The notes under the pieces were generated by a model. That model saw only the letters and a list, made by a program, of their open reading frames with translations. It made no database searches and was not told the origin of the DNA. The position numbers and the translations under genes were made by a program. DNA of 64,000 nucleotides from positions 1 through 64,000 of IMG/VR virus record IMGVR_UViG_3300044640_001869; one strand, 5' to 3'. This stretch comes from an uncultured virus (IMG/VR IMGVR_UViG_3300044640_001869). Lineage: Duplodnaviria; Heunggongvirae; Uroviricota; Caudoviricetes. How positions within the stretch are numbered: position 1 is the stretch's first letter; the number at the start of each line of letters is the position of its first letter. This document shows, piece after piece, positions 36,694 to 57,676 of this stretch.

Positions 36694-36766
36694 TAGCAAC
36701 GGACCGGAATCGAACCAGCTTGGGTCGGCTTATGAGACCGATGAGATACCTTACCTCCCCCCTGCT
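36694..36766 (-). tRNA. tRNA (CAT anticodon), irregular acceptor stem
   Basis: TCGGT-CTCATAA-GCCGA anticodon arm; GCTGG-TTCGATT-CCGGT T-arm. Confidence 0.7.
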
Positions 36767-36777
36767 ATATATAAAAA

Positions 36778-39377: not shown

Positions 39378-40433
39378 TTATAACTTTTTGAATTCCGGTC
39401 TTATTAGTTTCCATATAGTTTCATCGTAATCTTTTTTATCCCACATCTGAAACATTACACCTCTAAGACCTTCTTTTATGTTTTTCATAACAAACTCTGC
39501 GTATTCTTTCTTAGATGGTTCAGGGTCAACGTCACCATATTTTCCGTATCTAAATCCGTCGTGCATTTTACCACAGTATTCGGATATTGAGTAGTGAGCG
39601 TATCTCAAGTCTTTAACGTAAGATTTTATTTTTTTGTAGAATTCGTCAGGAACTTCTTTCATCAATTCTAAAACATCATCACCATTTTTTAAACATTCCC
39701 ATATACCAGTAGTTGATACGTTAGTCATTATTTTGTGTAGACGTAAGTATTCAACACCTTTAACTTTCATTCTATTACCATTTGAGAAGTGAACTATAAA
39801 CCCCTCAGCATCGTCTCTAACCATCTCTTTTAACACTGAATAGTCTGATATACCATCATAACGTTTAACTACATTAAGACCTATGTTTTTCACTAAGTTT
39901 TGTATTCTTATATCTGAGTCACCGTGTAAACTAACTTCGTAATCGTCTTTAGTGTTTACCGCACCAAGTAAAACAACATCTTCAAAATCATAAGAACAAA
40001 CTATTCTGTTGTCAGAATATATTATTTCAAATAAGTAAGTGAAATCTTTATGTAATTTGTTGTAGTCGTATTTAGATAACATTTCCATACCTTTTACCGA
40101 TTGGTCAGAAGTAAATGACCCACGAGTTGCCATCACCCATTCACCTTCATAGTGGAAAAATATACCCAATGAACCATCCATTTTTTCATAGACTTTGAAT
40201 TCATCAGTTGAAGTATGTTTCCCTTCTTCCATATTGAAGAATTTTCTGAATGGTCTTGCAACTATATTACCGTTATCGTCAGTTACTAAACCACGGCACA
40301 TCAAGGTTACCTCATCCCATAAGTCTTCAAACTGAACTTTCTCAGTGTAATTCCATATAGTTAATGGTAAAGTTGAATGTACTTGTTTGTACAATAATCC
40401 ATCGTTGTAATATTTTTCTAACGTTGCTTTCAT
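39378..40433 (-). CDS. RNA ligase, T4 Rnl1-like
   Basis: CRGL, KFFN, EKMDGS, TRGSF, FEII, EGFIV, KVK. Confidence 0.88.
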   Translation of the reverse strand: MKATLEKYYNDGLLYKQVHSTLPLTIWNYTEKVQFEDLWDEVTLMCRGLVTDDNGNIVARPFRKFFNMEEGKHTSTDEFKVYEKMDGSLGIFFHYEGEWVMATRGSFTSDQSVKGMEMLSKYDYNKLHKDFTYLFEIIYSDNRIVCSYDFEDVVLLGAVNTKDDYEVSLHGDSDIRIQNLVKNIGLNVVKRYDGISDYSVLKEMVRDDAEGFIVHFSNGNRMKVKGVEYLRLHKIMTNVSTTGIWECLKNGDDVLELMKEVPDEFYKKIKSYVKDLRYAHYSISEYCGKMHDGFRYGKYGDVDPEPSKKEYAEFVMKNIKEGLRGVMFQMWDKKDYDETIWKLIRPEFKKL

Positions 40434-40445
40434 ACAACAAATATA

Positions 40446-41387
40446 CTAAATTCTTTTTATAATAGTACCGTCTGAATAGTGAAAAAATTTAACACCGGGT
40501 GAATCTAATGTAACTTCTTGACCTAAAAGATTTGTTATCTTAATTAATACTGGTGTGATGTTACGATTGTCTATAGATATAATTTCAAAATTTTTAGTTT
40601 TACCGTCAAAATCGGTTTGAGTTAAATAATAATATGAAATGTCATTAAAATAATCTCTTTCTAAATACTTGTAATAATGTTGAAATGGTGAAGTTCCAAC
40701 ACCATCAACTTTAGCAATTTCTTTCCAATTAATTGGATAATACGTTTTATAGATTGTAAAATATTGATTATTAGTTTCAGTTGCAGTTGCCCATTCAAGT
40801 AAATTACCTTCTTCAGTTTGTTTACCTTTAAAGTATAACAAATCAATCGGTAAGGATACCGGTGGTGACTCATATATTGATAAATCATCTAAATATACCG
40901 ATGTTGGACCACCATACACAGTTTTAATCCATATTTGAAAATAACCTGAACCTGTATAAGATGGAACTACAGTAAATGACCATTTATACCAGGTGTTCCA
41001 ATTTGAATTACAGTTTGAGTTAGTTTGAGTATCAGTTGTTAATAATGTTGTTTGATTTGGTAATTCATTAGTGTTAACCGTAACTGAGCAGGCTCTTTTA
41101 GTGTAAAAAGTAATTGTGTAACTATTACTATTAACAAAATTAATAGGTATGTAAATATAAATTGAATTACCATTAGCTGCCGATGAAAATCTTGCCGAAT
41201 ATTTTGTCGCGTCAAACACACCTCGATAATTACCTGTGGCCGTCTCATTTCGGTTAAACACCCACACATTAGAGGTTGACGACCACCCTGTTGGTGATAC
41301 ATTTGAAAAGTGTTGGTCAACAAGATATGTTTGCCCGTGAACAACCACAGACAAACATAACATTAATAAAAATATTAAAAATTTCAT
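40446..41387 (-). CDS. Secreted beta-rich protein with LPxxL motif and T9SS-CTD-like tail
   Basis: Signal peptide, LPIDLLYF, WATATETNN, YYYLTQTDFDG, ITNLLGQEV. Confidence 0.65.
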   Translation of the reverse strand: MKFLIFLLMLCLSVVVHGQTYLVDQHFSNVSPTGWSSTSNVWVFNRNETATGNYRGVFDATKYSARFSSAANGNSIYIYIPINFVNSNSYTITFYTKRACSVTVNTNELPNQTTLLTTDTQTNSNCNSNWNTWYKWSFTVVPSYTGSGYFQIWIKTVYGGPTSVYLDDLSIYESPPVSLPIDLLYFKGKQTEEGNLLEWATATETNNQYFTIYKTYYPINWKEIAKVDGVGTSPFQHYYKYLERDYFNDISYYYLTQTDFDGKTKNFEIISIDNRNITPVLIKITNLLGQEVTLDSPGVKFFHYSDGTIIKRI

Positions 41388-42418
41388 TTTTCATTTAATA
41401 AAAATTTATTAGAAATCACCTTAAAACTGATTTTTCTATCGTGAGAACGAATTACAATTCCTTCTCTATCGAACTTTTCATTCAATACTGATTTACTATC
41501 GGCATAAGATAATAACTCATCAATTGTGTCAGGTAATCTAAATTCTAAATCTAAGATTGGAACTGTTTTTACCTCTAACCATTTAGATAATTTAAGTAAA
41601 TCATCCAAAGATAAATATTCATACTTATCAATATCAAAACCATTAAACAATCTAACAGTTTGTCCGATGATTTTATATGGGTTACCTTGAATACCCTCAC
41701 CAATGATTTCCCCTTGGACCGCAATGTTTCTATCTAACGCTAGTAAACGTTCTTTTAATCCACTTGTGATTGCAAATTTCCACATTGAGTTACCTTCACT
41801 CTCAACTAAATCTAAGTTACGAGAACATACACCAAACACACCGTCTTTAACGTAGTAAGTTACACTAGAACCATCTAACTTTTCAGTCACATAAAACACT
41901 TCGTTCTTGTACCCTTCAAACTCTCTTGTCAAGTTTTGAATTCTTTCCTCATCAGTTTTCTTTAAAAAAGATGGGAACATACCTTTAACTTGTCCTGATA
42001 ATTGTGCAGGAACAGGTGGTTCGTATTTTACAATGTTTAACATTTCAGTTACTTCTAAACCTTCAAACCAATCCATATCTATATTGGGAGTGTTTCTTTT
42101 GAAAACTTCGTAAGCATCTTTTAATGGTAAAATTAAACCTTGAGAAACTTGTCCTCTTAATTTAATAGTTTTTAATCTGAAACCTTCAGTACCGTCGGCC
42201 ATTTTCTTGTAAGAACTTTTACGTAAAAATTCAAACTCAGGTTCGATTGGTAAAAAAGAGTCAATCTCACAGTAAACAACTAAATCCCCAACTTTGTGGT
42301 TAACATTTTTTGCAACTACGACTTTCCACCCCCCAACGGTTGCTAATTCAATCATATCCGCACCTTCGATTGGTTGGATGTTGTCAATTTGTCTAATCGT
42401 TGCTAATTTTCTTTCCAT
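41384..42418 (-). CDS. RNA ligase, DRB0094 family
   Basis: PIEGADMIE OB-like N-terminus, KTDEERIQN, TEKLDGSS, QGE, REGIV, FKVISN. Confidence 0.9.
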   Translation of the reverse strand: MERKLATIRQIDNIQPIEGADMIELATVGGWKVVVAKNVNHKVGDLVVYCEIDSFLPIEPEFEFLRKSSYKKMADGTEGFRLKTIKLRGQVSQGLILPLKDAYEVFKRNTPNIDMDWFEGLEVTEMLNIVKYEPPVPAQLSGQVKGMFPSFLKKTDEERIQNLTREFEGYKNEVFYVTEKLDGSSVTYYVKDGVFGVCSRNLDLVESEGNSMWKFAITSGLKERLLALDRNIAVQGEIIGEGIQGNPYKIIGQTVRLFNGFDIDKYEYLSLDDLLKLSKWLEVKTVPILDLEFRLPDTIDELLSYADSKSVLNEKFDREGIVIRSHDRKISFKVISNKFLLNEK

Positions 42419-46842: not shown

Positions 46843-48111
46843 CTAAAGTTTTTTTTTTAATCCACTGTTTGTGATTTCTTCAGTAATTGACCCAGGACCT
46901 TTAACTTTATTTAAAGCTATTGGTGATGAGTTACCCGCACGTCTAACCCAAGCAATTTTACCACCATCTAATAACCTATTATAAGGGTCGGCATAAACTT
47001 GTCCGTGAACGTTATGGAATATAATTGGAACACCATCTTTAATCGCACCTACTATACCTACGTGAGTATTCATACCCCAAGCATTACCTGATTTAAGAGT
47101 ATTACCTGGAACGTATTTACCATTATTTTTTAGAATATATGGTTTATTACCTGATATGGCGTTTTTACCCCCAAGATAAAAAGCTTTTTCGTGATTTTCT
47201 GAAGTTGGGTAGTATATACCAACAACATCATTAAGTTGTAATTTAGGCGGTGCTGATTTAATCAAACTTCTTACTAAATTTCTAGCATCATTAATATAAT
47301 TACCTTTAGCACCACCTGATTTATCTATTTTAACCCATAAATCAGTGATTCTTTTAACATCATCAGGTGATAAACCTCTAAATGACGTAAAAATACGTGG
47401 ACCTATTTGGTCTTTACTATGAGCTAACCAAGCATCCCCAACGGATTCAAGTTTAGTATCAAAATCGTTAACAAACTGAGCACATTCACGTTGACCCGCA
47501 CCAAAGACAGGTGTTGATTTACCCGTACTAATTTTAGGACCAACTTTAACTATTTTTGATAAAAAATTAGGATTAGTTGTTTTACTAACAATAGTGTCTG
47601 ATTTATCAATTGGATTTGGAACAGGTTTTTCACCACATTTAAACCCACTTGATTTATATTCAATCCAAGAATTGAACCCACAAGATTTCGCTCTCATTAA
47701 TTTTTGTTGTGGGGTTAATTTAGTGTCATCTTCAGGTTTTGGTTTTGGCTCAGGAATAGGTTTTGGTTTTGGTTTTGGTTTTGGCTCAGGAATAGGTTTT
47801 GGTTTTGGGTCAGGAATAGGTCTTGGGTCAGGAATAGGTTTTGGAGTAGGTTCAACATCAGGTACAACATTAATACCTGTTTTATTATTTAATATAGTTA
47901 TGGCTTTAGGATATCCTGATAAATCCACCCATTCAGTTCCATTTTTTAGTTTAGCGTACCAAGTGTTATTTGATATTTTGTAATCGTATTTTCTATCAAT
48001 ATTGTCAAATATTTGTTCAACAGAATCTTCAAAAAGATAGTTATTTTCTTTGATTATTGAATTAACAACATTTATTAAATCTGTTTCTTTTAAACGAATT
48101 GTTTTTTTCAT
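46843..48111 (-). CDS. Putative virion protein with Pro-Lys repeats and CHAP/NlpC-like domain
   Basis: IRLKETDL N-terminus, CAQFV...GDAW...THVGIV. Confidence 0.6.
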   Translation of the reverse strand: MKKTIRLKETDLINVVNSIIKENNYLFEDSVEQIFDNIDRKYDYKISNNTWYAKLKNGTEWVDLSGYPKAITILNNKTGINVVPDVEPTPKPIPDPRPIPDPKPKPIPEPKPKPKPKPIPEPKPKPEDDTKLTPQQKLMRAKSCGFNSWIEYKSSGFKCGEKPVPNPIDKSDTIVSKTTNPNFLSKIVKVGPKISTGKSTPVFGAGQRECAQFVNDFDTKLESVGDAWLAHSKDQIGPRIFTSFRGLSPDDVKRITDLWVKIDKSGGAKGNYINDARNLVRSLIKSAPPKLQLNDVVGIYYPTSENHEKAFYLGGKNAISGNKPYILKNNGKYVPGNTLKSGNAWGMNTHVGIVGAIKDGVPIIFHNVHGQVYADPYNRLLDGGKIAWVRRAGNSSPIALNKVKGPGSITEEITNSGLKKKL

Positions 48112-48174
48112 CTTAAAATTGTTTATTAATAAATATTCTTAAATGAAAAAAAAAACATATTGGTTTAGAATTAC

Positions 48175-48283
48175 GTTATCAATACAGGATTCGAACCTGT
48201 GAGTCCCCGTGTATAGGTATCATACATACCACATTCCCAGACTTTATGTATGCTCAACCTTAAACCACTCGGTCAATAAATAA
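48175..48283 (-). ncRNA. tRNA-like element with expanded anticodon arm
   Basis: D-arm TGACCGAGTGGTTTAAGGT and T-arm ACAGGTTCGAATCCTGT; CATACATA/TATGTATG stem with 16-nt loop. Confidence 0.55.
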
Positions 48284-48284
48284 A

Positions 48285-48454
48285 CCCCTCCTGAGATTAC
48301 GGAGAGTAGATATTCACAGTTTTCTTATGCAAAACCCAACGCGTCTTACCGCTTAAAAATCAACTCTTACTTGGGGGATAGGAGAGTCTTCCTTCCGATT
48401 CCCAATGAATACCCCGTAACGTGGATGGTATCAGTTCCGTTAAGTTTTGAGGGA
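48285..48454 (-). ncRNA. ~170-nt structured RNA candidate
   Basis: Ends pair (CCCTC/GAGGG, TTAACGGA/TCCGTAA, GATA/TATC); internal hairpins. Confidence 0.45.
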
Positions 48455-48489
48455 CTCTTAAAAACCCATTGAGTTTCTCGAACTCATTG

Positions 48490-48515
48490 TTGCCCCACAG
48501 GGATTCAAACCCTGA
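48490..48515 (-). pseudogene. tRNA 3' fragment (Gln-like acceptor GGGGCA-A)
   Basis: CAGGG-TTTGAAT-CCCTG-TGGGGCAA with no 5' half. Confidence 0.6.
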
Positions 48516-48558
48516 TTATGGAATTAGTCTTTTTGATACTATCCACATATTTATTGTT

Positions 48559-48921
48559 ATGGAAACTAAAATTTGTACTTCGTGTAATGAAGAAAAATCA
48601 GTAACTGAATTCTATCAACAAAACGATAGACCTTCAAAACAATCAAAATGTAAAGTCTGCTTCAATAAATATTGTTCTGAACGTTGGATTAAAACAAAAA
48701 TAAAAGCTATTGAGTATAAAGGTGGTAAATGTTTAGATTGTTCTAATTCATACCCTAAATCACCATATGTTATTTTTGATTTTCATCATCGTGACCCATC
48801 ACAAAAAGATGTTGAATGGACTCACTTACGAAAACGTTCTTGGGATAAAATAATTAAAGAACTTGATAAATGTGATTTACTTTGTTCAAATTGTCATCGT
48901 ATCCGTCATCACAACGAGTAG
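48559..48921 (+). mobile_element. Free-standing HNH endonuclease inserted antisense in the tRNA cluster
   Basis: CxxC pairs, FDFHH, LLCSNCHRIRH; flanked by a 16-bp direct repeat of tRNA T-arms. Confidence 0.8.
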
Positions 48922-48991
48922 TCCTACAGGGATTCAAACCCCAACGAAACCCTTAGAAGGGGCTTATGCTATTCAGTTACATCATAGGACC
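48919..48991 (-). tRNA. tRNA-Arg(TCT)
   Basis: Cloverleaf, loop CTTCTAA; T-loop TTTGAAT. Confidence 0.8.
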
Positions 48992-48997
48992 AAAATA

Positions 48998-49073
48998 TGG
49001 TGGAGGTACTGGTAATCGAAACCAGATTTGTAAATTGCAAATCTACCGTAATAAGCCATTATACGATACCCCC
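48998..49073 (-). tRNA. tRNA-Ala(TGC)
   Basis: Loop TTTGCAA, G3:U70, encoded CCA. Confidence 0.88.
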
Positions 49074-49188
49074 ATAATAAAAAGACAACAGGTAATACTC
49101 ACATTTATTATTACCCAACTCAACGACCTTTATAGTTGTGAATCTGTTTTAAAGGTTTTCCTCGGTGAAGAGTTTGTTGTCTATTTTG

Positions 49189-49261
49189 AGCGGGTGGAGG
49201 GAATCGAACCCTCGTCTTTAAATTGGAAGTCTAATATAATAATCCACTATACGACACCCGC
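49189..49261 (-). tRNA. tRNA-Gly(TCC)
   Basis: Loop CTTCCAA. Confidence 0.88.
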
Positions 49262-49347
49262 TAATTTGGGTAGAATCAGACGCGTTCTGTCTACCGAGAC
49301 CTCATCGTTAATAAGTTACCTTATCAGAGCGTTCTGAGACACTATTG

Positions 49348-49427
49348 TGAACCTGGTGGGAGTCGAACCCACAATCCTAAGAACTTCCGCTTAAAGAAAG
49401 CGTGTATACCAATTTCACCACAGGTCC
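49348..49427 (-). tRNA. tRNA-Leu(TAA)
   Basis: Loop TTTAAGC, variable arm. Confidence 0.85.
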
Positions 49428-49486
49428 TTGAGTGTAGTAGGGCAGCAGTCCCTTGAGGCACCTACACAAGTTTTTCCTCTTTTTTG

Positions 49487-49558
49487 CGGACCATGAAGGA
49501 TTCGAACCTACGACCTATCGGTTAACAGCCGATTGCTCTACCGCTGAGCTAATAGTCC
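49487..49558 (-). tRNA. tRNA-Asn(GTT)
   Basis: Loop CTGTTAA. Confidence 0.9.
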
Positions 49559-49564
49559 ATTGTG

Positions 49565-49637
49565 AGGTCCCTAACGGATTCGAACCGTTATCTCTGGGTT
49601 ACAAAGCCAGAATAATAAGCCATTATACTAAGAGACC
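49565..49637 (-). tRNA. tRNA-Thr(TGT)
   Basis: Loop TTTGTAA. Confidence 0.85.
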
Positions 49638-49661
49638 AATTAAGAGTGTTATTTCTCTTTG

Positions 49662-49733
49662 CTGAATAATAAGGAATTGAACCTTAATCTTGAATCCGTA
49701 TTACCATCATCCGTGCACCGTACACCATACTCA
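49662..49733 (-). pseudogene. Degenerate tRNA-like element
   Basis: Acceptor, D-like and T-arm (TAAGG-TTCAATT-CCTTA) present; anticodon arm irregular. Confidence 0.45.
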
Positions 49734-49783
49734 ATCGGATGTTTCGAACCATCCATATAAAGGGTTATAACTCCTTTATTTTG

Positions 49784-49856
49784 AGCGGTAGAGAGGAATC
49801 GAACCTCCGTCCTAACCTTGGCAAGGTTATATAATAAACCATTATACGACTACCGC
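49784..49856 (-). tRNA. tRNA-Gly(GCC)
   Basis: Loop TTGCCAA. Confidence 0.9.
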
Positions 49857-50077
49857 AAGTTGTGATTACTCCATTGGGTATGTTTCATCACATTAACGTG
49901 ATGAGGCGGCCAAACCTACTAATATCACGAAGAAATTTTATATCGACTTAAAATTTCTCAAAAAATCGTCAGTTTTTATCGGTCAAAACTGAATAAACGG
50001 TTTGATACCTTGTAACCTCATTTTAAAGTGCGTGTTACAATCCTCTCTCAAACAGAACTCTACTGTGTACACTCCCG

Positions 50078-50149
50078 CGGTCTATGCGAGAATCGAACTC
50101 GCGGCACATCCGTGACAGGGATGTATGTTAGCCACTACACTAATAGACC
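50078..50149 (-). tRNA. tRNA-Asp(GTC)
   Basis: Loop CTGTCAC. Confidence 0.9.
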
Positions 50150-50348
50150 ATTTTAAAAAAACAAGTTTTTCGTGACCATTACACATCATAACCAATTTTA
50201 CTCGGTGATTACATTTTCGTCATTTGGGTAGCTAATCCCAGACTTATAGTAATTCTACCCTCAATAACTTTACTACCGCGAATCAAGTACCGTCTTGGGA
50301 TTTATAGACAGTGAGGGTTTACTCACCGTCCTCACTTGTTTTATTTAG

Positions 50349-50420
50349 TAGCGGGAACAGGATTCGAACCTGTGTCTCAGGGTTATGAGCCCAGCGGGGT
50401 GACCACTCCCCCATCCCGCG
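50349..50420 (-). tRNA. Initiator tRNA-fMet(CAT)
   Basis: C1:U72 mismatch, GGG/CCC anticodon stem. Confidence 0.88.
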
Positions 50421-50425
50421 ATATG

Positions 50426-50499
50426 TATCGCGTACGGGATTCGAACCCGTGATTTTCACCTTGAAAGGGTGACGACTTAAACCACTCGTCTAACGCGAC
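50426..50499 (-). tRNA. tRNA-Glu(TTC)
   Basis: Loop CTTTCAA. Confidence 0.9.
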
Positions 50500-50518
50500 A
50501 TTTTATTTTTTCTATTCC

Positions 50519-50561
50519 GATATGTCAAAGACCTTTTGTTTTCTTTTGTCTTACAAATCTA
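50519..50561 (-). promoter_or_regulatory. Internal -7 promoter and boxA-like element
   Basis: TAGATTTG 50554-50561; GGTCTTTGACATAT. Confidence 0.65.
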
Positions 50562-50592
50562 AGTATTTACTTTTGATTATACAAGACTTTTT

Positions 50593-51108
50593 TTAAAGTA
50601 ATTTATCCTTATATAATTCAAACAATTCGTTTATATTACTAGAACATAAAATTGGGGTTATTCTATTTATCTCATCATCATTAAAATCCCACCATTTTAA
50701 TTTTAAAAGTTTTTGAATTGTTTCATCATCAAATCTTTTACGGATAGGTTTAGCTGGATTACCTCCAACAATAGTGTAAGGTTCAACATTTTTTACTACG
50801 TGAGAATTATTTGCAATAACGGCACCATCACCAATAATAACACCTGACATTATTGTTGCATTAGCACCAATCCAAACATCATTACCAATTATAACATCAC
50901 CATTAGATGACGGATGACCCACACTAAACGAATGTGGAAATGGGAATGTTGTAATCCAATCAGGTCTATGATTACCCCCAATAAAAATTTGAATATTTGT
51001 TGCTATTGAACAAAAAGACCCTATTTTAATTGTTTTACCTTCACCCCATTCGTAAATTTTAATATTTTCAGAACCGTAAGTTTTTCTACCAACACTATAT
51101 ATTGACAT
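50593..51108 (-). CDS. CatB/Vat-related hexapeptide-repeat O-acetyltransferase
   Basis: IGSFCSIA, NH, TTFPF, IGNDVWIG, VGGNPAK, WWD. Confidence 0.9.
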   Translation of the reverse strand: MSIYSVGRKTYGSENIKIYEWGEGKTIKIGSFCSIATNIQIFIGGNHRPDWITTFPFPHSFSVGHPSSNGDVIIGNDVWIGANATIMSGVIIGDGAVIANNSHVVKNVEPYTIVGGNPAKPIRKRFDDETIQKLLKLKWWDFNDDEINRITPILCSSNINELFELYKDKLL

Positions 51109-51139
51109 AATTTTTATTTTTTATTTTTTATTTTTTCAG

Positions 51140-51213
51140 TAGTTCAGGAGGGATTTGAACCCCCAACCTTGACGATATAAGCGTCCTGCTCTCACCTGTT
51201 GAGCTACTGAACC
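51140..51213 (-). tRNA. tRNA-Ile(TAT)
   Basis: Loop CTTATAT. Confidence 0.85.
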
Positions 51214-51219
51214 ATTATG

Positions 51220-51292
51220 TATCCTCGGTGGGATTCGAACCCACAAAACCTTGTTTCTAAGACAAGGACGTATACCTTTCCGTCACGAGGAT
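51220..51292 (-). tRNA. tRNA-Leu(TAG), short variable loop
   Basis: Loop CTTAGAA; 5-nt variable region. Confidence 0.85.
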
Positions 51293-51298
51293 ATTAAC

Positions 51299-51347
51299 TT
51301 CTAAACCAATATGTCAAAGAACTTTTTTCTTTTGTCTGACAAATCTA
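51299..51347 (-). promoter_or_regulatory. -7 promoter, boxA-like element and leader helix strand (operon A)
   Basis: TAGATTTG 51340-51347; GTTCTTTGACATATTGGTTTAGAA. Confidence 0.7.
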
Positions 51348-51381
51348 ATGCTTTTATTTTGATTTACCAAACGTAGGTAAC

Positions 51382-51413
51382 AAAAAAAACCCCTCTCTTT
51401 TGGAGAAGGGTTT
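51382..51413 (-). terminator. Attenuator terminator A
   Basis: AAACCCTTCTC-CAAAA-GAGAGGGG followed by T8. Confidence 0.85.
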
Positions 51414-51437
51414 CATTTAAATTTTATGTTTAATGAA

Positions 51438-51512
51438 TTAACACACCTTCTCCGATACACAAGGATTGTCTCCCTCCGTTCTCGCTATTAGTATGTTATT
51501 CAAGTTTTGCAT
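51438..51512 (-). CDS. Leader peptide A (24 aa, MQNLNNILIARTEGDNPCVSEKVC)
   Basis: Codons match downstream tRNAs; contains GGAGAAGG (51446-51453), complementary to the terminator 5' arm. Confidence 0.8.
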   Translation of the reverse strand: MQNLNNILIARTEGDNPCVSEKVC

Positions 51513-51590
51513 AATTTTGTTATTCTTTACTAATTAAATATATCAAAGTTTTGAAAAGTGTCAACAATTGGTTTAAATTTTTTTTTATTG

Positions 51591-51673
<83 letters not shown>

Positions 51674-51744
51674 GAATATATCGTAGATTGTCCTTCACAA
51701 TTTAACGGCGGGTTTGAACTTAATCAACTCTCCTACGATATTTG

Positions 51745-51816
51745 CGCACCACCAAGGACTCGAACCCTGACCAAATGGGTTGGAACCATTTATGCTAGCC
51801 ATTACACCAATGATGC
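51745..51816 (-). tRNA. tRNA-Trp(CCA)
   Basis: Loop TTCCAAC. Confidence 0.85.
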
Positions 51817-51842
51817 AAATAATGAAACAATATATTTCATTG

Positions 51843-51916
51843 AGGACAGAGAGGGATTCGAACCCCCGGATAGTGGATTTGCAGTCCACCCCTTTAAACC
51901 ACTCAGGCATCTGTCC
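51843..51916 (-). tRNA. tRNA-Cys(GCA)
   Basis: Loop CTGCAAA, U73. Confidence 0.9.
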
Positions 51917-52026
51917 AATTAAATATTAAGTCGCGAGTAATCCATCTGTCGCTTATTACTAGAATCTTGTGGCTTACTTACTATAGTTCATACCGTTACC
52001 ACTAGGAAACCCAACTTAACATTTTG

Positions 52027-52098
52027 TAGCCCCTGTAGGACTCGAACCTACACTATCTTGTATGTAAAACAAGTACTTCACCTTTAAGCTAAAGGGCT
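52027..52098 (-). tRNA. tRNA-Val(TAC)
   Basis: Loop TTTACAT. Confidence 0.85.
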
Positions 52099-52106
52099 AA
52101 TTATTG

Positions 52107-52181
52107 TGACCCCGGTGAGAATCGAACTCACGACCCGTACATTAAAAGTGTACTGCTCTAAACCAACTGAGCTACGAAGTC
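52107..52181 (-). tRNA. tRNA-Lys(TTT)
   Basis: Loop CTTTTAA. Confidence 0.9.
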
Positions 52182-52307
52182 AAAAATAGAAGGTCACCGA
52201 TAACACCTTCCGTGGTGGGTTATTTAATGTCATTTTCTCTAATTACACCTAAGTGTCATAGTCGCAGGGTCCCACTTTACTGACAAACCCGATTCGGTAT
52301 TAAGTAG

Positions 52308-52381
52308 TCGGAATGGTAGGGTTCGAACCTACGACCTTTCACGTATCAGGCGAATGCTCTTACCAGCTGAGCTACATTCCG
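52308..52381 (-). tRNA. tRNA-Ile(GAT)
   Basis: Loop CTGATAC. Confidence 0.88.
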
Positions 52382-52389
52382 TTAATTTT

Positions 52390-52464
52390 TGGTCGGGGTG
52401 GCAGGTGTCGAACCTGCCGCCTCTTGGTCCCAAACCAAGCGTCTCACCCCAAGACTACACCCCG
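52390..52464 (-). tRNA. tRNA-Pro(TGG)
   Basis: Loop TTTGGGA, encoded CCA. Confidence 0.88.
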
Positions 52465-52474
52465 TTATTTCTTT

Positions 52475-52519
52475 CTAAACCAATATGTCAAAGACCTTTT
52501 CTTTTGTCTAACAAAGATA
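52475..52519 (-). promoter_or_regulatory. Internal -7 promoter and boxA-like element
   Basis: TATCTTTG 52512-52519; GGTCTTTGACATATTGGTTTAG. Confidence 0.65.
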
Positions 52520-52563
52520 AGTAATCATTTCCATTCTCACAATACCTTTGTAATATTTTTTTG

Positions 52564-52633
52564 TACCGAGTATGGGTTTCGAACCCACTTGACCATCCTT
52601 ATGAGAGATAGTTCTTTTCCTCTAAGCCTCGGT
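52564..52633 (-). tRNA. tRNA (CAT; elongator Met or Ile2) with atypical D-arm
   Basis: Loop CTCATAA; T-arm GTGGG-TTCGAAA-CCCAT. Confidence 0.65.
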
Positions 52634-52640
52634 GTTTCTG

Positions 52641-52728
52641 CGGAAGATGTGGGGCTCGAACCCACGCGTCATATTTCAGACCTATCACGTTAGCAATGTG
52701 ACCCCTTCACCAACTTGGGTAATCTTCC
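52641..52728 (-). tRNA. tRNA-Ser(GCT)
   Basis: Loop TTGCTAA, long variable arm. Confidence 0.9.
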
Positions 52729-52768
52729 AAATTACACCGACCTAGCTCGGTATCACACATCGGATACG

Positions 52769-52840
52769 TAGTCCCCCAAGGACTCGAACCTTGACATTAT
52801 CGTCCGTAGCGATAGGTGCTATCCATTACACCAAGGAACC
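52769..52840 (-). tRNA. tRNA-Arg(ACG)
   Basis: Loop CTACGGA. Confidence 0.88.
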
Positions 52841-52933
52841 AAATAATAAGGTTGGAGACTTATAATCGACCATTATAAGGTTCCAGCCTTATATTCATCA
52901 ATTATTAGGTTTTAACCTAATATTCACCCATTA

Positions 52934-53131
52934 TTAGGTTATTACCTTATATTGAGTTTTTCTGTAGTGTTTCCAAGTCTTATACATTCTAACTTGATAA
53001 CTCATTTTGTTTCCGTAGAAAGTAATTCCGTCATCCCAATAAATTGGATAAAAGTCATTTATCAATCTATTTCGGTATTCTCTACCATTTTGTGCTTTGT
53101 TCAGTTTTGCTCTGTTGATGTTTGTACTCAT
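52934..53131 (-). CDS. Small basic protein (65 aa) within tRNA operon
   Basis: MSTNINRAKLNKAQ...TWKHYRKTQYK. Confidence 0.6.
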   Translation of the reverse strand: MSTNINRAKLNKAQNGREYRNRLINDFYPIYWDDGITFYGNKMSYQVRMYKTWKHYRKTQYKVIT

Positions 53132-53157
53132 AGTTGTGGTTTTTAACCTACAACTTG

Positions 53158-53370
53158 TCAAATTTTTTCTTCATTTTGTTTAATGTAATCTAATGCAATG
53201 TGTATCAAACCATTGAGATATTGCCATTTAGGACTTGCGTTCGGATAATGACCGAATATCTCAACTAATTTTTCTTCTTGCCATTTCCTTTCACTTACGA
53301 TTGGAGATAACCATCGACCATTTTCTAAGTCGGAACTGATAAATGTTTTTTCTGTCTCTGTGATTTCTAA
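53158..53370 (-). pseudogene. 70-codon open frame lacking a canonical start
   Basis: LEITETEKTF...EEKI*, protein-like composition, stop two codons upstream. Confidence 0.35.
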
Positions 53371-53387
53371 GTTTTAAAAATTAATTG

Positions 53388-53462
53388 GGTGACTATTGGG
53401 ATTCGAACCCAACCTATAAGAACCACAAACTTACGTGCTCGACCACTAACACTATAGCCACC
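53388..53462 (-). tRNA. tRNA-His(GTG)
   Basis: G-1 and C73, loop TTGTGGT. Confidence 0.88.
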
Positions 53463-53542
53463 ATATAAAAACCCCACTTCATCAGCTTAACGGACTGACT
53501 GCCATATCGGAGGTGGGGGTATCCTGTTAATTCAGGACCTCG

Positions 53543-53615
53543 TGGGACAGGAGGGAATCGAACCCCCATTGCTTGTTCTTCAGACAAGTGCCTTGACCAA
53601 CTTGGCAACTGACCC
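53543..53615 (-). tRNA. tRNA-Phe(GAA)
   Basis: Loop CTGAAGA. Confidence 0.85.
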
Positions 53616-53698
53616 AATTTATTAGTTATTGATGTTGACACGGCCTTCGTGAGCCTATAAGACCATCTTTTAACGTGAAATAACTAATTGTTTTATTG

Positions 53699-53773
53699 TT
53701 GTCCCGGCAGGAATCGAACCTGCGATATCCACATTCAAAGTGTGGTGGCTCTGCCAACGTCGCCTACAGGACA
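53699..53773 (-). tRNA. tRNA-Gln(TTG)
   Basis: U1-A72, loop CTTTGAA. Confidence 0.88.
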
Positions 53774-53780
53774 ATAATGG

Positions 53781-53906
53781 TTACTTATGTAACCTTTTGA
53801 TTAATTTTCTAATTAATCTGAATTTTAGTTTAACCTCTTTAGGCTCTTGTCTTAAAAATCTTTTACTTGACTCAAATGTTCCCGTCAATACTTCTCTTTT
53901 TACCAT
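53781..53906 (-). CDS. Small basic peptide (41 aa, MVKREVLTGTFESSKRF...)
   Basis: Fills the spacer between tRNA-Ser and tRNA-Gln. Confidence 0.45.
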   Translation of the reverse strand: MVKREVLTGTFESSKRFLRQEPKEVKLKFRLIRKLIKRLHK

Positions 53907-53921
53907 AACTCTATTTTTTTG

Positions 53922-54008
53922 AGGAGAGTGTGGGACTCGAACCCACAAGACCCATTACACGTCTTACTACTTTTCAAGAGTAGCTCTTCATCCTGCCAGA
54001 TACTCTCC
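53922..54008 (-). tRNA. tRNA-Ser(TGA)
   Basis: Loop CTTGAAA, long variable arm. Confidence 0.85.
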
Positions 54009-54013
54009 TTATT

Positions 54014-54057
54014 TATCTAAACCAATATGTCAATGAACTTTTCTGTTGTCAAAGGTA
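54014..54057 (-). promoter_or_regulatory. -7 promoter, boxA-like element and leader helix strand (operon B)
   Basis: TACCTTTG 54050-54057; GTTCATTGACATATTGGTTTAGAT. Confidence 0.7.
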
Positions 54058-54091
54058 CGAATTTCATTTCGTAACTTCCAAATTTTATTTC

Positions 54092-54124
54092 AAAAAAAAA
54101 CCCCCGAACTTTTGGTTCAGGGGT
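54092..54124 (-). terminator. Attenuator terminator B
   Basis: CCCCTGAAC-CAAAA-GTTCGGGGG followed by T9. Confidence 0.85.
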
Positions 54125-54150
54125 CTTATCAAATTGTTATACGTTTATAA

Positions 54151-54270
54151 CTAACTTAATATGTTTTCTGAACCATATGACGTGATAAACCACATCGGAT
54201 ACGATACGCTACACACGCGAATCTGTTTCGATTGACTTACTTGTTTAATATGTTGTTCAGTTGTTCTCAT
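54151..54270 (-). CDS. Leader peptide B (39 aa, MRTTEQHIKQVSQSKQIRVCSVSYPMWFITSYGSENILS)
   Basis: Codons 6-29 match downstream tRNAs; TGGTTCAG (54168-54175) complementary to terminator; TAAATTTG promoter at 54297-54304. Confidence 0.85.
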   Translation of the reverse strand: MRTTEQHIKQVSQSKQIRVCSVSYPMWFITSYGSENILS

Positions 54271-54332
54271 TTTTTAATTCTTTTAATATATATCAACAAA
54301 TTTAGTAAAAGTTCTTTAGTAGTCAAGTTTTT

Positions 54333-54881
54333 TTAAAACTTTTTTTGACAATCGTCACAAAAATTTAATTTTAAGTTATCATTTTCACGAGTTTGTGACA
54401 TAACACACGTTGGGTTTTCACAGTGGTCAAGACCATAACAGTGACCCATTTCGTGTATTAATACTCGTTCAGTTGTGTTAGCTGGGTTTTTACCAATTAT
54501 AATAAGATTACCACCCAATTCACCAACACCACCAACAGGTCTTTTTTCTACCGTTGAATAACACTTGGTGTTGGTTACCAAAATTTTATTTGTGTTATCG
54601 TCAAAATCCATTAAAGACTTTTCAATATTAAGTTTACCTTCATAACATTTGTCAGGTGTTAATTCGAGTGGTTCACCAATTTTAGTTGGGATGTGACATC
54701 TTCTTTCAAGAATGTCTTTAATTCTTAACACCTCTAATTGATTGAAATCACCCAAACCTTGTATTACAATTGTGTCCCCATCACTCATACATTTCATATC
54801 AAACACATCTAAATTAGATGAATTATTTTCACAACTAAATAACGATAAACCAATCAAACCAAACATTAATAATTTTTTCAT
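54333..54881 (-). CDS. Archaemetzincin-like (M54) zinc metalloprotease lipoprotein
   Basis: Lipobox LFSC; HEMGHCYGLDHC...CVM...FCDDC. Confidence 0.85.
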   Translation of the reverse strand: MKKLLMFGLIGLSLFSCENNSSNLDVFDMKCMSDGDTIVIQGLGDFNQLEVLRIKDILERRCHIPTKIGEPLELTPDKCYEGKLNIEKSLMDFDDNTNKILVTNTKCYSTVEKRPVGGVGELGGNLIIIGKNPANTTERVLIHEMGHCYGLDHCENPTCVMSQTRENDNLKLNFCDDCQKKF

Positions 54882-54925
54882 ATCTCTTTTTTTTAATTTT
54901 AACGAAGATACTAATTATAATTCAA

Positions 54926-55123
54926 TCACACCAAATTGTTATCACTATTTTTCCATTCTTTCCAATAATCAAAATCTTTTAGGTCCTCAATAAATTTTTT
55001 AGGAACTGAAACATATTCTTCCGAATCATTAATTTCACTCATCATATTCATATATGATTGACCATCTAATGAATTACAGAATTTTCTGTGTTCTTCTTCT
55101 AACATTTCGTGAAAACTTCCCAT
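54926..55123 (-). CDS. Hypothetical protein
   Basis: 65-aa ORF. Confidence 0.6.
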   Translation of the reverse strand: MGSFHEMLEEEHRKFCNSLDGQSYMNMMSEINDSEEYVSVPKKFIEDLKDFDYWKEWKNSDNNLV

Positions 55124-55124
55124 C

Positions 55125-55301
55125 TTAGATTTTTTTAACTAAATATGTATGACCTGAATCTGAGTTAGTTTCGAAAATATCTTTCATTTTTTCGGCTGCT
55201 TCGTAAGTATCAAATTCCCAAACTTCGTGGTCTGAATTCAAAATAATAACAGGAATTGAGATTCCTTTTTTGTTCTTTACATTCTTAATTATTACGTACA
55301 T
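55125..55301 (-). CDS. Hypothetical protein
   Basis: 58-aa ORF from MYVIIK. Confidence 0.6.
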   Translation of the reverse strand: MYVIIKNVKNKKGISIPVIILNSDHEVWEFDTYEAAEKMKDIFETNSDSGHTYLVKKI

Positions 55302-55409
55302 ATTTTTTTGTTTTAAAAAGTTATAGGACAAACATAAATATAAATCCACATAAAAACAAAATTTGAGTTTTATTTTTTTTTGTCTATATTAGTTGTAAAA
55401 TTATTTAGA

Positions 55410-55901
55410 ATGGACAAAGTATTAGTATTAAATGCTGATTACACACCGATTAATGTAACTACAACAATACGAGGTTTTAATTTAGTTACTAAAGGTAAAG
55501 CCGAAATATTGAAATCAGGTGAATCACCTATTATTGCCGGGTCAACTACTCTTGTTAGACCTTTGATAATTAGATTATTATCTTATGTTAGATTTAGAGT
55601 ACGGACTTTAAAAATAAATAGACACAGGGTCTTTAGACGTGATAATCATAAATGTGCGTATTGTGGTAGTTCTAAAAACTTAACCATTGACCACGTATTA
55701 CCTAAATCAAGAGGTGGGGGAAATACTTGGAGTAATTTAGTTACTTGTTGTAAAAGTTGTAATCGAGTTAAGGATAATAAAACACCTGATGAAGCGGGTA
55801 TGAAATTATTAATTAAACCATTTGAACCATCAATATTTTCTAATGTAATTAATCCTAATATTGAAGAAATTTGGGTTGAATTTCAAAAAACTTTCTATTA
55901 A
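55410..55901 (+). CDS. HNH endonuclease (McrA/HNH_5-like)
   Basis: [37 protein letters not shown]. Confidence 0.9.
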
Positions 55902-55990
55902 AACAAAAAGGTGTCTCACGACACCCTTTTGTTAGATTTGCTCTCCTTTCTTTTGAAGTGTTAAGCCTTTTAGACAAATCTAAAAGATTT

Positions 55991-57676
55991 TTATTTACTT
56001 GGTATTATTTCTTGTTTAAGTTCAGAACCTAAACTACCAAAAAGTCCTCCTAAAGCACCTTTAAGTTTACCTAATGTCGGACATAAAACAGTTGATAACC
56101 CATTTTGAATACTATCAACAAATGGAACGTCATCAACAACTTCAATCACTGAATTTCTCAATACGTCGTAAAACCCACCTGTTAATCCTTTTTTATCTGC
56201 AAATTGGTTGATAGCATTTTCACCAATACCTTTTGCTAATTCAGGAACTAAAAATTCACATTTTAAAACGTTACCATTTAAAAAATCCCCTATTTTAATG
56301 TTACCTATTGTTGTTGATACAACACCACCTAACCAAGTTTTTGAACCACCAGGGACAAATTTGTCAATAATACTTTTAACTAATTTTTCTTTAAAATAAC
56401 TTATAATACCTTCACCCCCATAACCTAACGCTCCTGATAACATATCTTTAAGACCATCTTCATTAATTCTTTTTTTACCTGAATTTAATGATTCAAACGC
56501 CTCATCAATTGTTCTTATATAATTTTTAAATTCTTTAGTTGTTATTACGCTTTTTTTTTTACTCTCAGATAAGACAAATAATTTTTTTCGTAACACGGAT
56601 TTTAAATAATCATCAACTGATTCGTTCATATTTCCTTGATTTTGAGCCGTATTAACTTTATTTAATAAACCAAACGGTGAAGAATCACGTTTCAATCTAG
56701 CAATCTCATCTCCAACACCTAAAGCCCCTGTTAAAAACTTTTTCAAATCACAATTCATTGCATAATCTGTCATTTTATTTAATAATGTTGAATTAATGTT
56801 TTGTACTAAAACAGGATTTTTTCTAAATAACTGTGACATTTCGGACAAAGACTTAACAACACTTCTACACGTTTGTCTTTCAATTTTTTGAGAATCTAAT
56901 TCACCCGCAAGTTTATTAAACTTATCCAAAGGTTTTATACCTCCTAAATTTTGAAGTTTGATGTTATATACATTAATCTCACTTCTCTTTTTACCTAACT
57001 CACCTTCAATTTTTGGAATAAATGCGGCACTACCCGGTACATTTTGTAATGCAACAACTAAAGGTTGTTGAGTTTTCCATCTTTCAATATCATCCTTTTT
57101 TTCACCTGTTGGTTCGTCTAATGTAAAATTATTATCCGATAACCAATTTGCGATTTGAGGACTAACATTTGCTACAACACCTCCAATACCTTTTTGTCTA
57201 TATAAAAAGTATTTGTTTGGTACAGTAAATATTTTTTTACTTTCGGCATTCAAAGTATTCAAATCAACAGGTACAAATGTACCGGTTACAATACCTTCTC
57301 TAACACCCTTATCTTCAATTCTCATTAAAGTTTTGTCTTTAGCAATTAAACCATTAACCGCAGCTGCCATATCGGGACCCATAGGTGCGGTTACTTTCTC
57401 AGTAAATGCTTGACATTTTGCTAATCTACCTCTACCGTTTTCTTTTTTCTCGGTGTTATCAGGTAAGTTATATTTAACAAAAGTAAAATCAGGTTTGATT
57501 ATCATATAACCTTGACCAGGAAATTCTTTTTTTAAGACTTCTTGTCCATTCATAGATACAAAGGATAATCCTTGTGCATCTTCAGGACATAAACTTAAAA
57601 ATGATTTCAAATCACCTGAAGCTGTTACTGGAGTACCACCTACGTCTGTGGTTTCTTTTAAAATTATTTTTCTCAT
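55991..57676 (-). CDS. Hypothetical virion-associated protein
   Basis: Long ORF in late operon. Confidence 0.65.
   Translation of the reverse strand: MRKIILKETTDVGGTPVTASGDLKSFLSLCPEDAQGLSFVSMNGQEVLKKEFPGQGYMIIKPDFTFVKYNLPDNTEKKENGRGRLAKCQAFTEKVTAPMGPDMAAAVNGLIAKDKTLMRIEDKGVREGIVTGTFVPVDLNTLNAESKKIFTVPNKYFLYRQKGIGGVVANVSPQIANWLSDNNFTLDEPTGEKKDDIERWKTQQPLVVALQNVPGSAAFIPKIEGELGKKRSEINVYNIKLQNLGGIKPLDKFNKLAGELDSQKIERQTCRSVVKSLSEMSQLFRKNPVLVQNINSTLLNKMTDYAMNCDLKKFLTGALGVGDEIARLKRDSSPFGLLNKVNTAQNQGNMNESVDDYLKSVLRKKLFVLSESKKKSVITTKEFKNYIRTIDEAFESLNSGKKRINEDGLKDMLSGALGYGGEGIISYFKEKLVKSIIDKFVPGGSKTWLGGVVSTTIGNIKIGDFLNGNVLKCEFLVPELAKGIGENAINQFADKKGLTGGFYDVLRNSVIEVVDDVPFVDSIQNGLSTVLCPTLGKLKGALGGLFGSLGSELKQEIIPSK

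Follow-up and report, generated by a model that had tools for sequence, protein, structure and literature searches.

A short leader ORF that lists the tRNAs behind it: a probable transcription attenuator ahead of a viral tRNA block

We analysed a window of 64,000 nt, the first 64 kb of a 126,190-bp IMG/VR virus record (IMGVR_UViG_3300044640_001869), whose minus strand holds 25 transfer RNA (tRNA) genes between 54008 and 48918. These genes fall into two blocks, each with a short open reading frame (ORF) and an intrinsic terminator in front of it. We consider it likely that the ORF ahead of block A, here called leader A, belongs to a ribosome-mediated (leader-peptide) transcription attenuator that couples the decoding of block-A codons to read-through into the block-A tRNA genes. 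The ORF, its codon match and the predicted competing helices, together with their conservation, can be read from the DNA itself; translation of the ORF, stalling within it and regulated read-through are what we infer from them.

Leader A lies between a promoter-like site and the terminator, ahead of 12 tRNA genes, and has no Shine-Dalgarno sequence (coordinates of all parts are given in Table 1). The promoter-like site can also be read as TTG-N19-TATATTTA, a form that is present in 5/5 aligned sequences and that we take to be the Bacteroidota-type promoter consensus. Near the end of the ORF, GGAGAAGG (51453-51446) is exactly complementary to CCTTCTCC (51409-51402) in the 5' arm of the terminator. 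The sister unit ahead of block B has the same layout, with CTGAAC at codons 4-6, TGGTTCAG at codons 32-35 and CTGAACCA in its terminator, and the two terminators have a CAAAA loop in common. A first-pass annotation of this DNA had described the 24-codon ORF at 51512-51438, an antiterminator complementary to the terminator arm, the shared loop and the 12 downstream tRNAs; all are present, and ARAGORN returns the same 12 tRNAs. Their order is Leu-UAG, Ile-UAU, [acetyltransferase ORF], Glu, initiator-like Met, Asp, Gly-GCC, Thr, Asn, Leu-UAA, Gly-UCC, Ala and Arg-UCU.

Strict wobble rules were used to sort all codons into those served by block A and those served by block B. Of the 28,837 codons in the record's 97 long ORFs, 46.6% fall in class A and 40.6% in class B, and the remaining 12.8% have no reader in either block. 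Within the 24 codons of leader A, block-A tRNAs read codon 1 and every codon from 3 to 16, which makes its longest own-class run 14 codons; that of leader B is 20. Leader A covers 11 of the 12 tRNAs of its own block and 5/13 of the other, and leader B covers 13/13 of its own and 8/12 of the other. That codons 1-16 of leader A suffice for this coverage, with Gly-GCC alone missing, had been noted in the first pass and holds under strict wobble rules, as does a preference of both leaders for G-ending wobble codons, although this enrichment is moderate (4/7 versus 0.21 expected, P=0.04; 5/12 versus 0.17 expected, P=0.036). The first pass had suggested that this preference might also let the leaders sense loss of U34 modification.

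Such a match could in principle be a chance coincidence in an AT-rich spacer, particularly as the stretch of codons 1-16 was picked after the fact. Among 200,000 random ORFs drawn from the codon usage of the phage, a run of at least 14 has a probability of 1.9e-4 and coverage of at least 11 tRNAs a probability of 3.0e-3 for leader A; the corresponding values for leader B are 5e-6 (run) and 2e-4 (coverage). The random ORFs give a joint probability of 1e-5. A six-frame scan of stop-free windows across the whole 126-kb record, with no prior choice of place, also singles out both leaders. Coverage of 11 block-A tRNAs is reached by 2 of 94,737 16-codon windows, both inside leader A, and coverage of all 13 block-B tRNAs by 3 of 68,725 24-codon windows, all three inside leader B. 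The 20-codon run of leader B is the longest single-class run in the record, and the only others longer than the 14 codons of leader A are three at 27.4-27.8 kb, which use 3-6 tRNA species. Each of these genome-wide extremes directly precedes the tRNA block that it matches. Given these results, and the replication of the design in unrelated phages described below, we give chance almost no credence, in agreement with the earlier claim that the match exceeds it.

The leader regions also fold far better than shuffled sequences: the Z score is -6.3 for A and -5.1 for B, and none of 200 shuffles did as well. In leader A, the predicted 1:2 helix joins codons 4-8 (51503-51491) to 51446-51434 through 12 pairs, and the 2:3 helix, the antiterminator, joins segment 2 (51453-51432) to 51417-51402 through 8+6 pairs at -15.8 kcal/mol. 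In these predicted folds the antiterminator and the terminator (-16.3 kcal/mol) need the same stretch of RNA and are mutually exclusive. The three competing hairpins 1:2, 2:3 and 3:4 would form a set like that of trp.

We then simulated ribosome stalling: the RNA was masked as far as 12 nt beyond the P-site codon, an approximate footprint, and the transcript was folded to the terminator loop. For leader A, the full 2:3 helix forms with the P site up to codon 15, 7 pairs remain at codon 16 and none form from codon 18; for leader B, the helix forms up to codon 27, 7 pairs remain at codon 28 and none form from codon 30. Codon 16 in leader A and codon 29 in leader B close the matched runs, near the productive-stall boundary of each leader, so the positions at which a stall would bring about read-through hold codons that each unit's own tRNAs read. 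A ribosome stalled in the final eight codons of leader A would cover segment 2, and most of these codons belong to the other class.

These results suggest the following course of events. Transcription would start at 51564-51537 or arrive from block B, and the 24-codon leader would be translated despite lacking a Shine-Dalgarno sequence. A ribosome that reaches the stop codon would cover segment 2 (51453-51432), allowing the terminator (51414-51386) to form and transcription to stop. If usable block-A tRNA is short, a ribosome stalled in codons 3-16 would hold segment 1, segment 2 would pair with the 5' arm of the terminator, and RNA polymerase would read on to the tRNAs. Leader B would act likewise for the other 13 tRNAs, and the two halves of the tRNA repertoire would be sensed separately. 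The phage would probably make more block-A tRNAs when ribosomes decode block-A codons slowly, with tRNA depletion in infection as the presumed natural trigger.

Relatives were sought by a DNA motif scan and two protein-based scans, and one or both leaders are present in six related IMG/VR contigs and two metagenome contigs. Both leaders occur in L003, L006, L007, L011 and L025; leader B also occurs in L030 and L035, whose contig ends fall inside or just after it. Metagenome contigs that match the neighbouring 561-aa protein carry tRNAs in 0 of 10 cases, L030 and L035 being two of the ten. Identity of the leader regions to the window is 84-96% for A and 88-96% for B, and the neighbouring 561-aa protein is just 33% identical in L007 and L011. 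In leader A, variation falls at codon 2 (CAA or AAA), two codons in the 3' part, and codons 8-10, which read cta-ata, ctt-tta-gca or ctt-tta-aat, all of them A-class or CTT. The amino-acid changes within the run stay in class (I to L, and an extra Ala or Asn codon), and those in the run of leader B (Q to P and I to S) both remain B-class. The first pass had matched ATA-CTA-ATA to the first two tRNAs of the block; the relatives read ata-ctt-tta at this place, and we do not retain that detail.

In L006, terminator B carries three substitutions, and every terminator and antiterminator pair is retained through G-U or A-U pairing. Over the four distinct sequences, the 12 pairs of the 1:2 helix of leader A are paired in 95.8% of cells. 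The leader nucleotide sequence is conserved at synonymous sites too, as would be expected if the terminated leader RNA or the 24-aa peptide acted in trans, as a small RNA or micropeptide, with the codon match secondary. A trp attenuator has been described that works in trans through both its RNA and its peptide (PMC7968998; 10.1101/606483). Because amino-acid changes within the run are tolerated so long as codon class holds, we think a primary role in trans very unlikely, and such a role would in any case be compatible with attenuation in cis.

The relatives also differ in what they carry beside the leader. Between tRNA-Tyr and the leader A promoter lie genes for a DOT1-like methyltransferase (L003, 13273-13836), a YqeY-like protein (L007, 2979-3377, and L011) and a DUF805 protein (L025, 16426-16869). 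This site appears to be a hot spot of gene gain. The cargo is always 5' of the leader promoter and never between leader and tRNAs, leaving the leader-terminator-tRNA unit intact. In block B, L007 and L011 have a canonical tRNA-Met(CAU) where the window has a degenerate CAU tRNA-like element (52564-52633, minus strand; Rfam 23 bits, E=0.37), which may be a decaying or atypical tRNA; this tRNA-Met accounts for the single ATG that breaks the run of leader B. A divergent tRNA-Ala of L007 is visible only at a relaxed ARAGORN threshold.

We next turned to public genomes of huge phages with many tRNAs, LR756502.1 and LR756504.1, which are unrelated to the window phage. Under a fixed rule, a sub-cluster was a set of tRNAs at most 150 nt apart, its terminator the nearest hairpin plus T-run within 330 nt upstream, and its leader the longest ORF with 8 codons or more whose end lies within 90 nt upstream of the hairpin. 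On the window this rule picks exactly leaders A and B and nothing else. In the two genomes, 14 of 29 tRNA sub-clusters have a leader-plus-terminator unit and 15 do not. Two of the 14 units look spurious, having 0 cognate codons, and were retained in the permutation test, in which the leaders hold 65 cognate codons of their own cluster versus 22.3 in permuted pairings (0 of 100,000 permutations reach 65). A MTTSFQQQQQQQINRTD leader with seven Gln codons precedes four tRNA-Gln genes, a MRTILIIKKKKRDAIPIKIE leader precedes three tRNA-Lys genes, and a NIAIVEIAVIGGAEEGV leader, in which sixteen codons in a row are for Ile, Ala, Val, Glu or Gly, precedes Glu-Ala-Ile-Val-Gly tRNAs.

The footprint model gives a similar picture in five of these leaders. 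The terminator arm is predicted to be sequestered up to P-site codon 12-13 in the Gln leader (cognate codons 6-12), 23-24 in the Pro/Asp leader (cognate codons 19-24), 17 in the Ile/Gly leader (7-17), 20 in the Glu/Tyr leader (8-21) and 12-13 in the Arg-UCU leader (9-14); for the Phe/His, Tyr/Gln and Lys leaders the agreement is uneven or fails. Leader N-termini recur among these phages (MKN, MRT and MKT), and the Ile-UAU/Gly leader of LR756502.1 starts MKNLHNI versus M(Q/K)NLNNI in leader A. Taken together, the uniqueness of the codon match, the hairpins, the stall boundary, the relatives and these unrelated phages support in silico the original proposal of a second leader-peptide attenuator, complementary to leader B.

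The huge-phage leaders also bear on what is sensed. Leader A samples about 11 tRNA species, mostly once, and any slowing of elongation would stall ribosomes there, so that a real attenuator might respond to overall translation speed or amino-acid starvation and not to block-A tRNA supply. A general sensor would need no partition, however, and the two leaders partition codons as the tRNA blocks do; moreover, each leader in LR756502.1 and LR756504.1 is specific for between one and five amino acids, in agreement with the tRNAs beside it. We therefore judge a general sensor improbable.

Both of these huge phages (LR756502.1 and LR756504.1) group their tRNAs in small same-amino-acid clusters, and many of the clusters have a short leader and a terminator to themselves. 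Codons of the next downstream cluster also occur in several of the leaders; one leader that is rich in Ser and Arg codons, for instance, stands before Arg-ACG, Ser-UGA and Arg-UCG.

A number of observations count against an attenuator that governs block A, the first of which concerns what lies behind the terminators. A conserved promoter-like module separates terminator A from tRNA-Leu; it reads TTG-N20-TAGATTTG followed by CTTTGACATATTGGTTTAGA, and its core is invariant in relatives. tRNA-Pro and tRNA-Glu are each preceded by a homologous copy, and tRNA-Ser-UGA, behind terminator B, by a variant, TTG-N21-TACCTTTG. All four copies have TTG-N20/21-TAnnTTTG, a pattern that we take to resemble the Bacteroidota promoter consensus, and (C/A)TTGACATAT(T/C)GG(T/A)(T/A)TAGA; three of the four have the palindrome TTTGT-N3-ACAAA, which could be an operator. 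The record contains 35 TTG-N18-21-TAnnTTTG sites versus 17.5 +/- 3.8 in Markov shuffles; within the cluster, the tRNA strand has five of the 35, and a sixth lies just 5' of the cluster. Because such a module follows the terminator, the attenuators may, if the modules are active promoters, add to tRNA transcription rather than gate it, and any effect size that we assign to them beside the module is one that we infer.

Taken further, the same module would allow the terminator to be simply the end of the block-B unit, with block A driven only by the module behind it and the small ORF an unrelated micro-gene or unexpressed. The recurrence of the module before three other tRNA sub-blocks fits such an arrangement, as does the lack of a terminator between tRNA-Tyr and leader A. 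It would leave unexplained, however, why both leaders are genome-wide extremes for their own downstream tRNA sets, why competing helices exist, why the unit stays fixed to the tRNAs in relatives, and why the same design recurs in unrelated phages. There, 9 of the 14 units have a terminator that ends 8-15 nt from the first tRNA, too close for a promoter to fit in between. We consider a plain end-of-block terminator unlikely.

The remaining points on this side concern the attenuator itself. The ribosome-free equilibrium fold to the terminator loop slightly favours the antiterminator (-25.3 versus -24.4 kcal/mol), so default termination rests on folding kinetics. Among the four distinct sequences, helices are invariant or changed on one side only, and the eighth antiterminator pair of leader A is lost in two of them; because no pair changes on both sides and the helices barely vary, covariation neither supports nor contradicts the helices. 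Rather than forming runs, most cognate codons occur once or twice, so any one stall may have a weak effect, and the host's own tRNAs also read the leader codons. The partition, which the first pass had called exact, is imperfect as well: leader A has a B-class codon 2, and leader B has A-class codons at 2-5, positions that are productive in the model. In a further genome, LR756508.1, whose tRNAs are scattered singly, 3 of 23 sub-clusters pass the fixed rule and none is convincing. The leader-terminator-tRNA design is common, not universal.

Leader-peptide attenuators control amino-acid operons through trpL, hisL, pheL and leuL and through the multivalent thrL and ilvL, and in E. coli the pheM leader attenuates pheST, a translation-machinery gene, through Phe codons. 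With trpL-type attenuators the unit described here shares a promoter, a short codon-rich ORF, competing 1:2, 2:3 and 3:4 hairpins, an intrinsic terminator, and a stop codon at which a ribosome completing the ORF covers segment 2; in anatomy it comes closest to the multivalent leaders of thr and ilv. Unlike these systems, its target would be tRNA genes and not biosynthetic enzymes, leader A samples 11 tRNA species once or twice and not through runs of a single codon, two leaders share out a repertoire of 25 tRNAs, and the unit is phage-encoded, lacks a Shine-Dalgarno sequence and has a promoter-like module after its terminator. As with pheM-pheST, a component of the decoding apparatus would be controlled by how well its own codons are read, whereas the target there is an aminoacyl-tRNA synthetase for a single amino acid in a cell and not a virus. 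T-box riboswitches likewise let tRNA status decide between terminator and antiterminator, but they bind uncharged tRNA directly and have no ORF; an Rfam scan of 47000-56000 gave no T-box match at E<=1, leading us to reject this reading, and no family besides tRNA near the gathering threshold over the same interval. The units of LR756502.1 and LR756504.1 share the architecture and similar leader N-termini, but the window leaders are far more multivalent and have a promoter-like spacer of ~90 nt, versus mostly direct abutment on the tRNA.

Why phages carry tRNAs, and how these are controlled, is an open question. The logic of the leader peptide appears here to feed back on tRNA supply, the leader serving as a checklist of the tRNAs behind it. 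A search of freely searchable full-text literature yielded no published account of tRNA genes under leader-peptide attenuation, and as far as we could find such attenuation is described only for amino-acid and related operons. The unit would provide a natural sensor of per-codon decoding capacity, and a signature that can be searched for in viral metagenomes, namely a leader whose codon set equals the downstream tRNA set. A broader proposal, on which our confidence is evenly balanced, is that large phages of Bacteroidota-type hosts run a tRNA homeostat in which multivalent leaders test each block codon by codon and raise only the block that is lacking. Its trigger could be host anticodon nucleases or infection-induced tRNA decay, which would fit two RNA-ligase genes that lie 6-9 kb away. 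Should this proposal be true, these would be the first tRNA genes under leader-peptide attenuation, and this the first genome that splits its whole decoding set between two complementary sensors.

Other parts of the first-pass annotation did not hold up. It had explained codon 2 of leader A (CAA) by a Gln-like 3' tRNA fragment beside an HNH endonuclease gene, and had looked to relatives without the HNH gene for an intact tRNA-Gln in block A. Codon 2 is AAA in L003, which lacks the HNH gene, and no relative has a block-A tRNA-Gln. We rejected the Gln assignment of the fragment, whose best match is the T-arm and 3' end of tRNA-Arg-UCU (21/24); the homologous DNA in L003 is the 3' end of that contig's tRNA-Arg-UCU. 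The HNH gene (48469-48921, plus strand) abuts tRNA-Arg-UCU, and on the gene's far side, within the first part of its ORF, lies the displaced copy of the tRNA 3' end (~48490-48520, minus strand); in L003 the junction is uninterrupted. From its sequence, the HNH gene looks like a homing-type insertion that rebuilt the tRNA end.

Table 1. Positions of the leader units, promoter-like modules and tRNA blocks in the window
Feature	Position	Strand	Description
Promoter-like site A	51537..51564	-	TTGACA-16-TATATT, 11/12 matches
Leader ORF A	51438..51512	-	24 codons + TAA; peptide MQNLNNILIARTEGDNPCVSEKVC
Matched codon run A (codons 3-16)	51465..51506	-	Proposed sensing stretch; 14 codons, all read by block-A tRNAs
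Segment 1 A (codons 4-8)	51491..51503	-	Pairs with segment 2 as anti-antiterminator (minimum-free-energy folds)
Segment 2 A	51432..51453	-	GGAGAAGG + GTGTGTTAATTCATT; codons 20-24, stop codon and beyond
Segment 3 A	51402..51417	-	AATGAA + CCTTCTCC; 5' arm of terminator, also partner of segment 2
Intrinsic terminator A	51378..51414	-	Hairpin 51414-51386, 12 pairs, CAAAA loop, then T-run; -16.3 kcal/mol
Promoter-like module after terminator A	51340..51370	-	TTG-N20-TAGATTTG; contains palindrome TTTGT-N3-ACAAA; core invariant in relatives
Repeated element CTTTGACATATTGGTTTAGA	51300..51319	-	Just 5' of first tRNA of block A
Four module copies (~70-90 nt)	51370-51300, 50584-50508, 52542-52470, 54081-54016	-	Each directly before a tRNA sub-block
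tRNA block A	48918..51292	-	12 tRNAs (ARAGORN) + acetyltransferase ORF
tRNA block B	51590..54008	-	13 tRNAs + degenerate CAU tRNA-like element 52564-52633
Sister unit B	54088..54326	-	Promoter-like site 54326-54297, leader, terminator
Leader ORF B	54270-54151	-	39 codons
Segment 2 of unit B	54175-54168	-	TGGTTCAG, codons 32-35
Terminator B	54127-54097	-	Hairpin with CAAAA loop

The record as a whole has a CheckV completeness estimate of 42% and a GC content of ~30%, and its genes include a T4-type major head protein, portal, large terminase and two RNA ligases. By capsid protein, its nearest cultured relative is Flavobacterium phage immuto (39% identity over 66% of the protein), which has 3 tRNAs above the Rfam cut-off and 4 annotated, too few for testing the tRNA-leader idea. 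A search for close phage relatives in GenBank with megablast and blastn returned solely tRNA-sized or acetyltransferase matches. The RNA ligase genes, at 39378-40433 and 41384-42418 on the minus strand, are Rnl1-like (PF09511) and Rnl2-like with a PHA02142 OB domain, and an unannotated 313-aa ORF sits between them. The two may form a tRNA-repair kit, fitting a phage that monitors its own tRNA supply.

Beyond the 25 clustered tRNAs, a 26th at 36695-36768 (minus strand) is a solitary tRNA with a CAU anticodon, 12 kb off the cluster, and is either elongator Met or Ile2. The CAU tRNA of block A (50348-50420) has a 1:72 mismatch and three G:C pairs adjoining the anticodon loop, as read off the sequence; these we take to be initiator marks, which is why we call it initiator-like. 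A hexapeptide-repeat acetyltransferase gene (50593-51108, minus strand) lies within the tRNA cluster, is missing at that position in L003, L006 and L007, and resembles the Vat-type streptogramin acetyltransferase genes that Streptococcus phages carry (~75% nucleotide identity over 190 nt). Several gaps between block-A tRNAs (50150-50347, 49857-50076, 49638-49782 and 49074-49187, minus strand) are long and relatively GC-rich and have no convincing ORF; they may hold other structured RNAs. Inside one of them, ARAGORN calls a tRNA-like element at 49661-49733 at a relaxed threshold.

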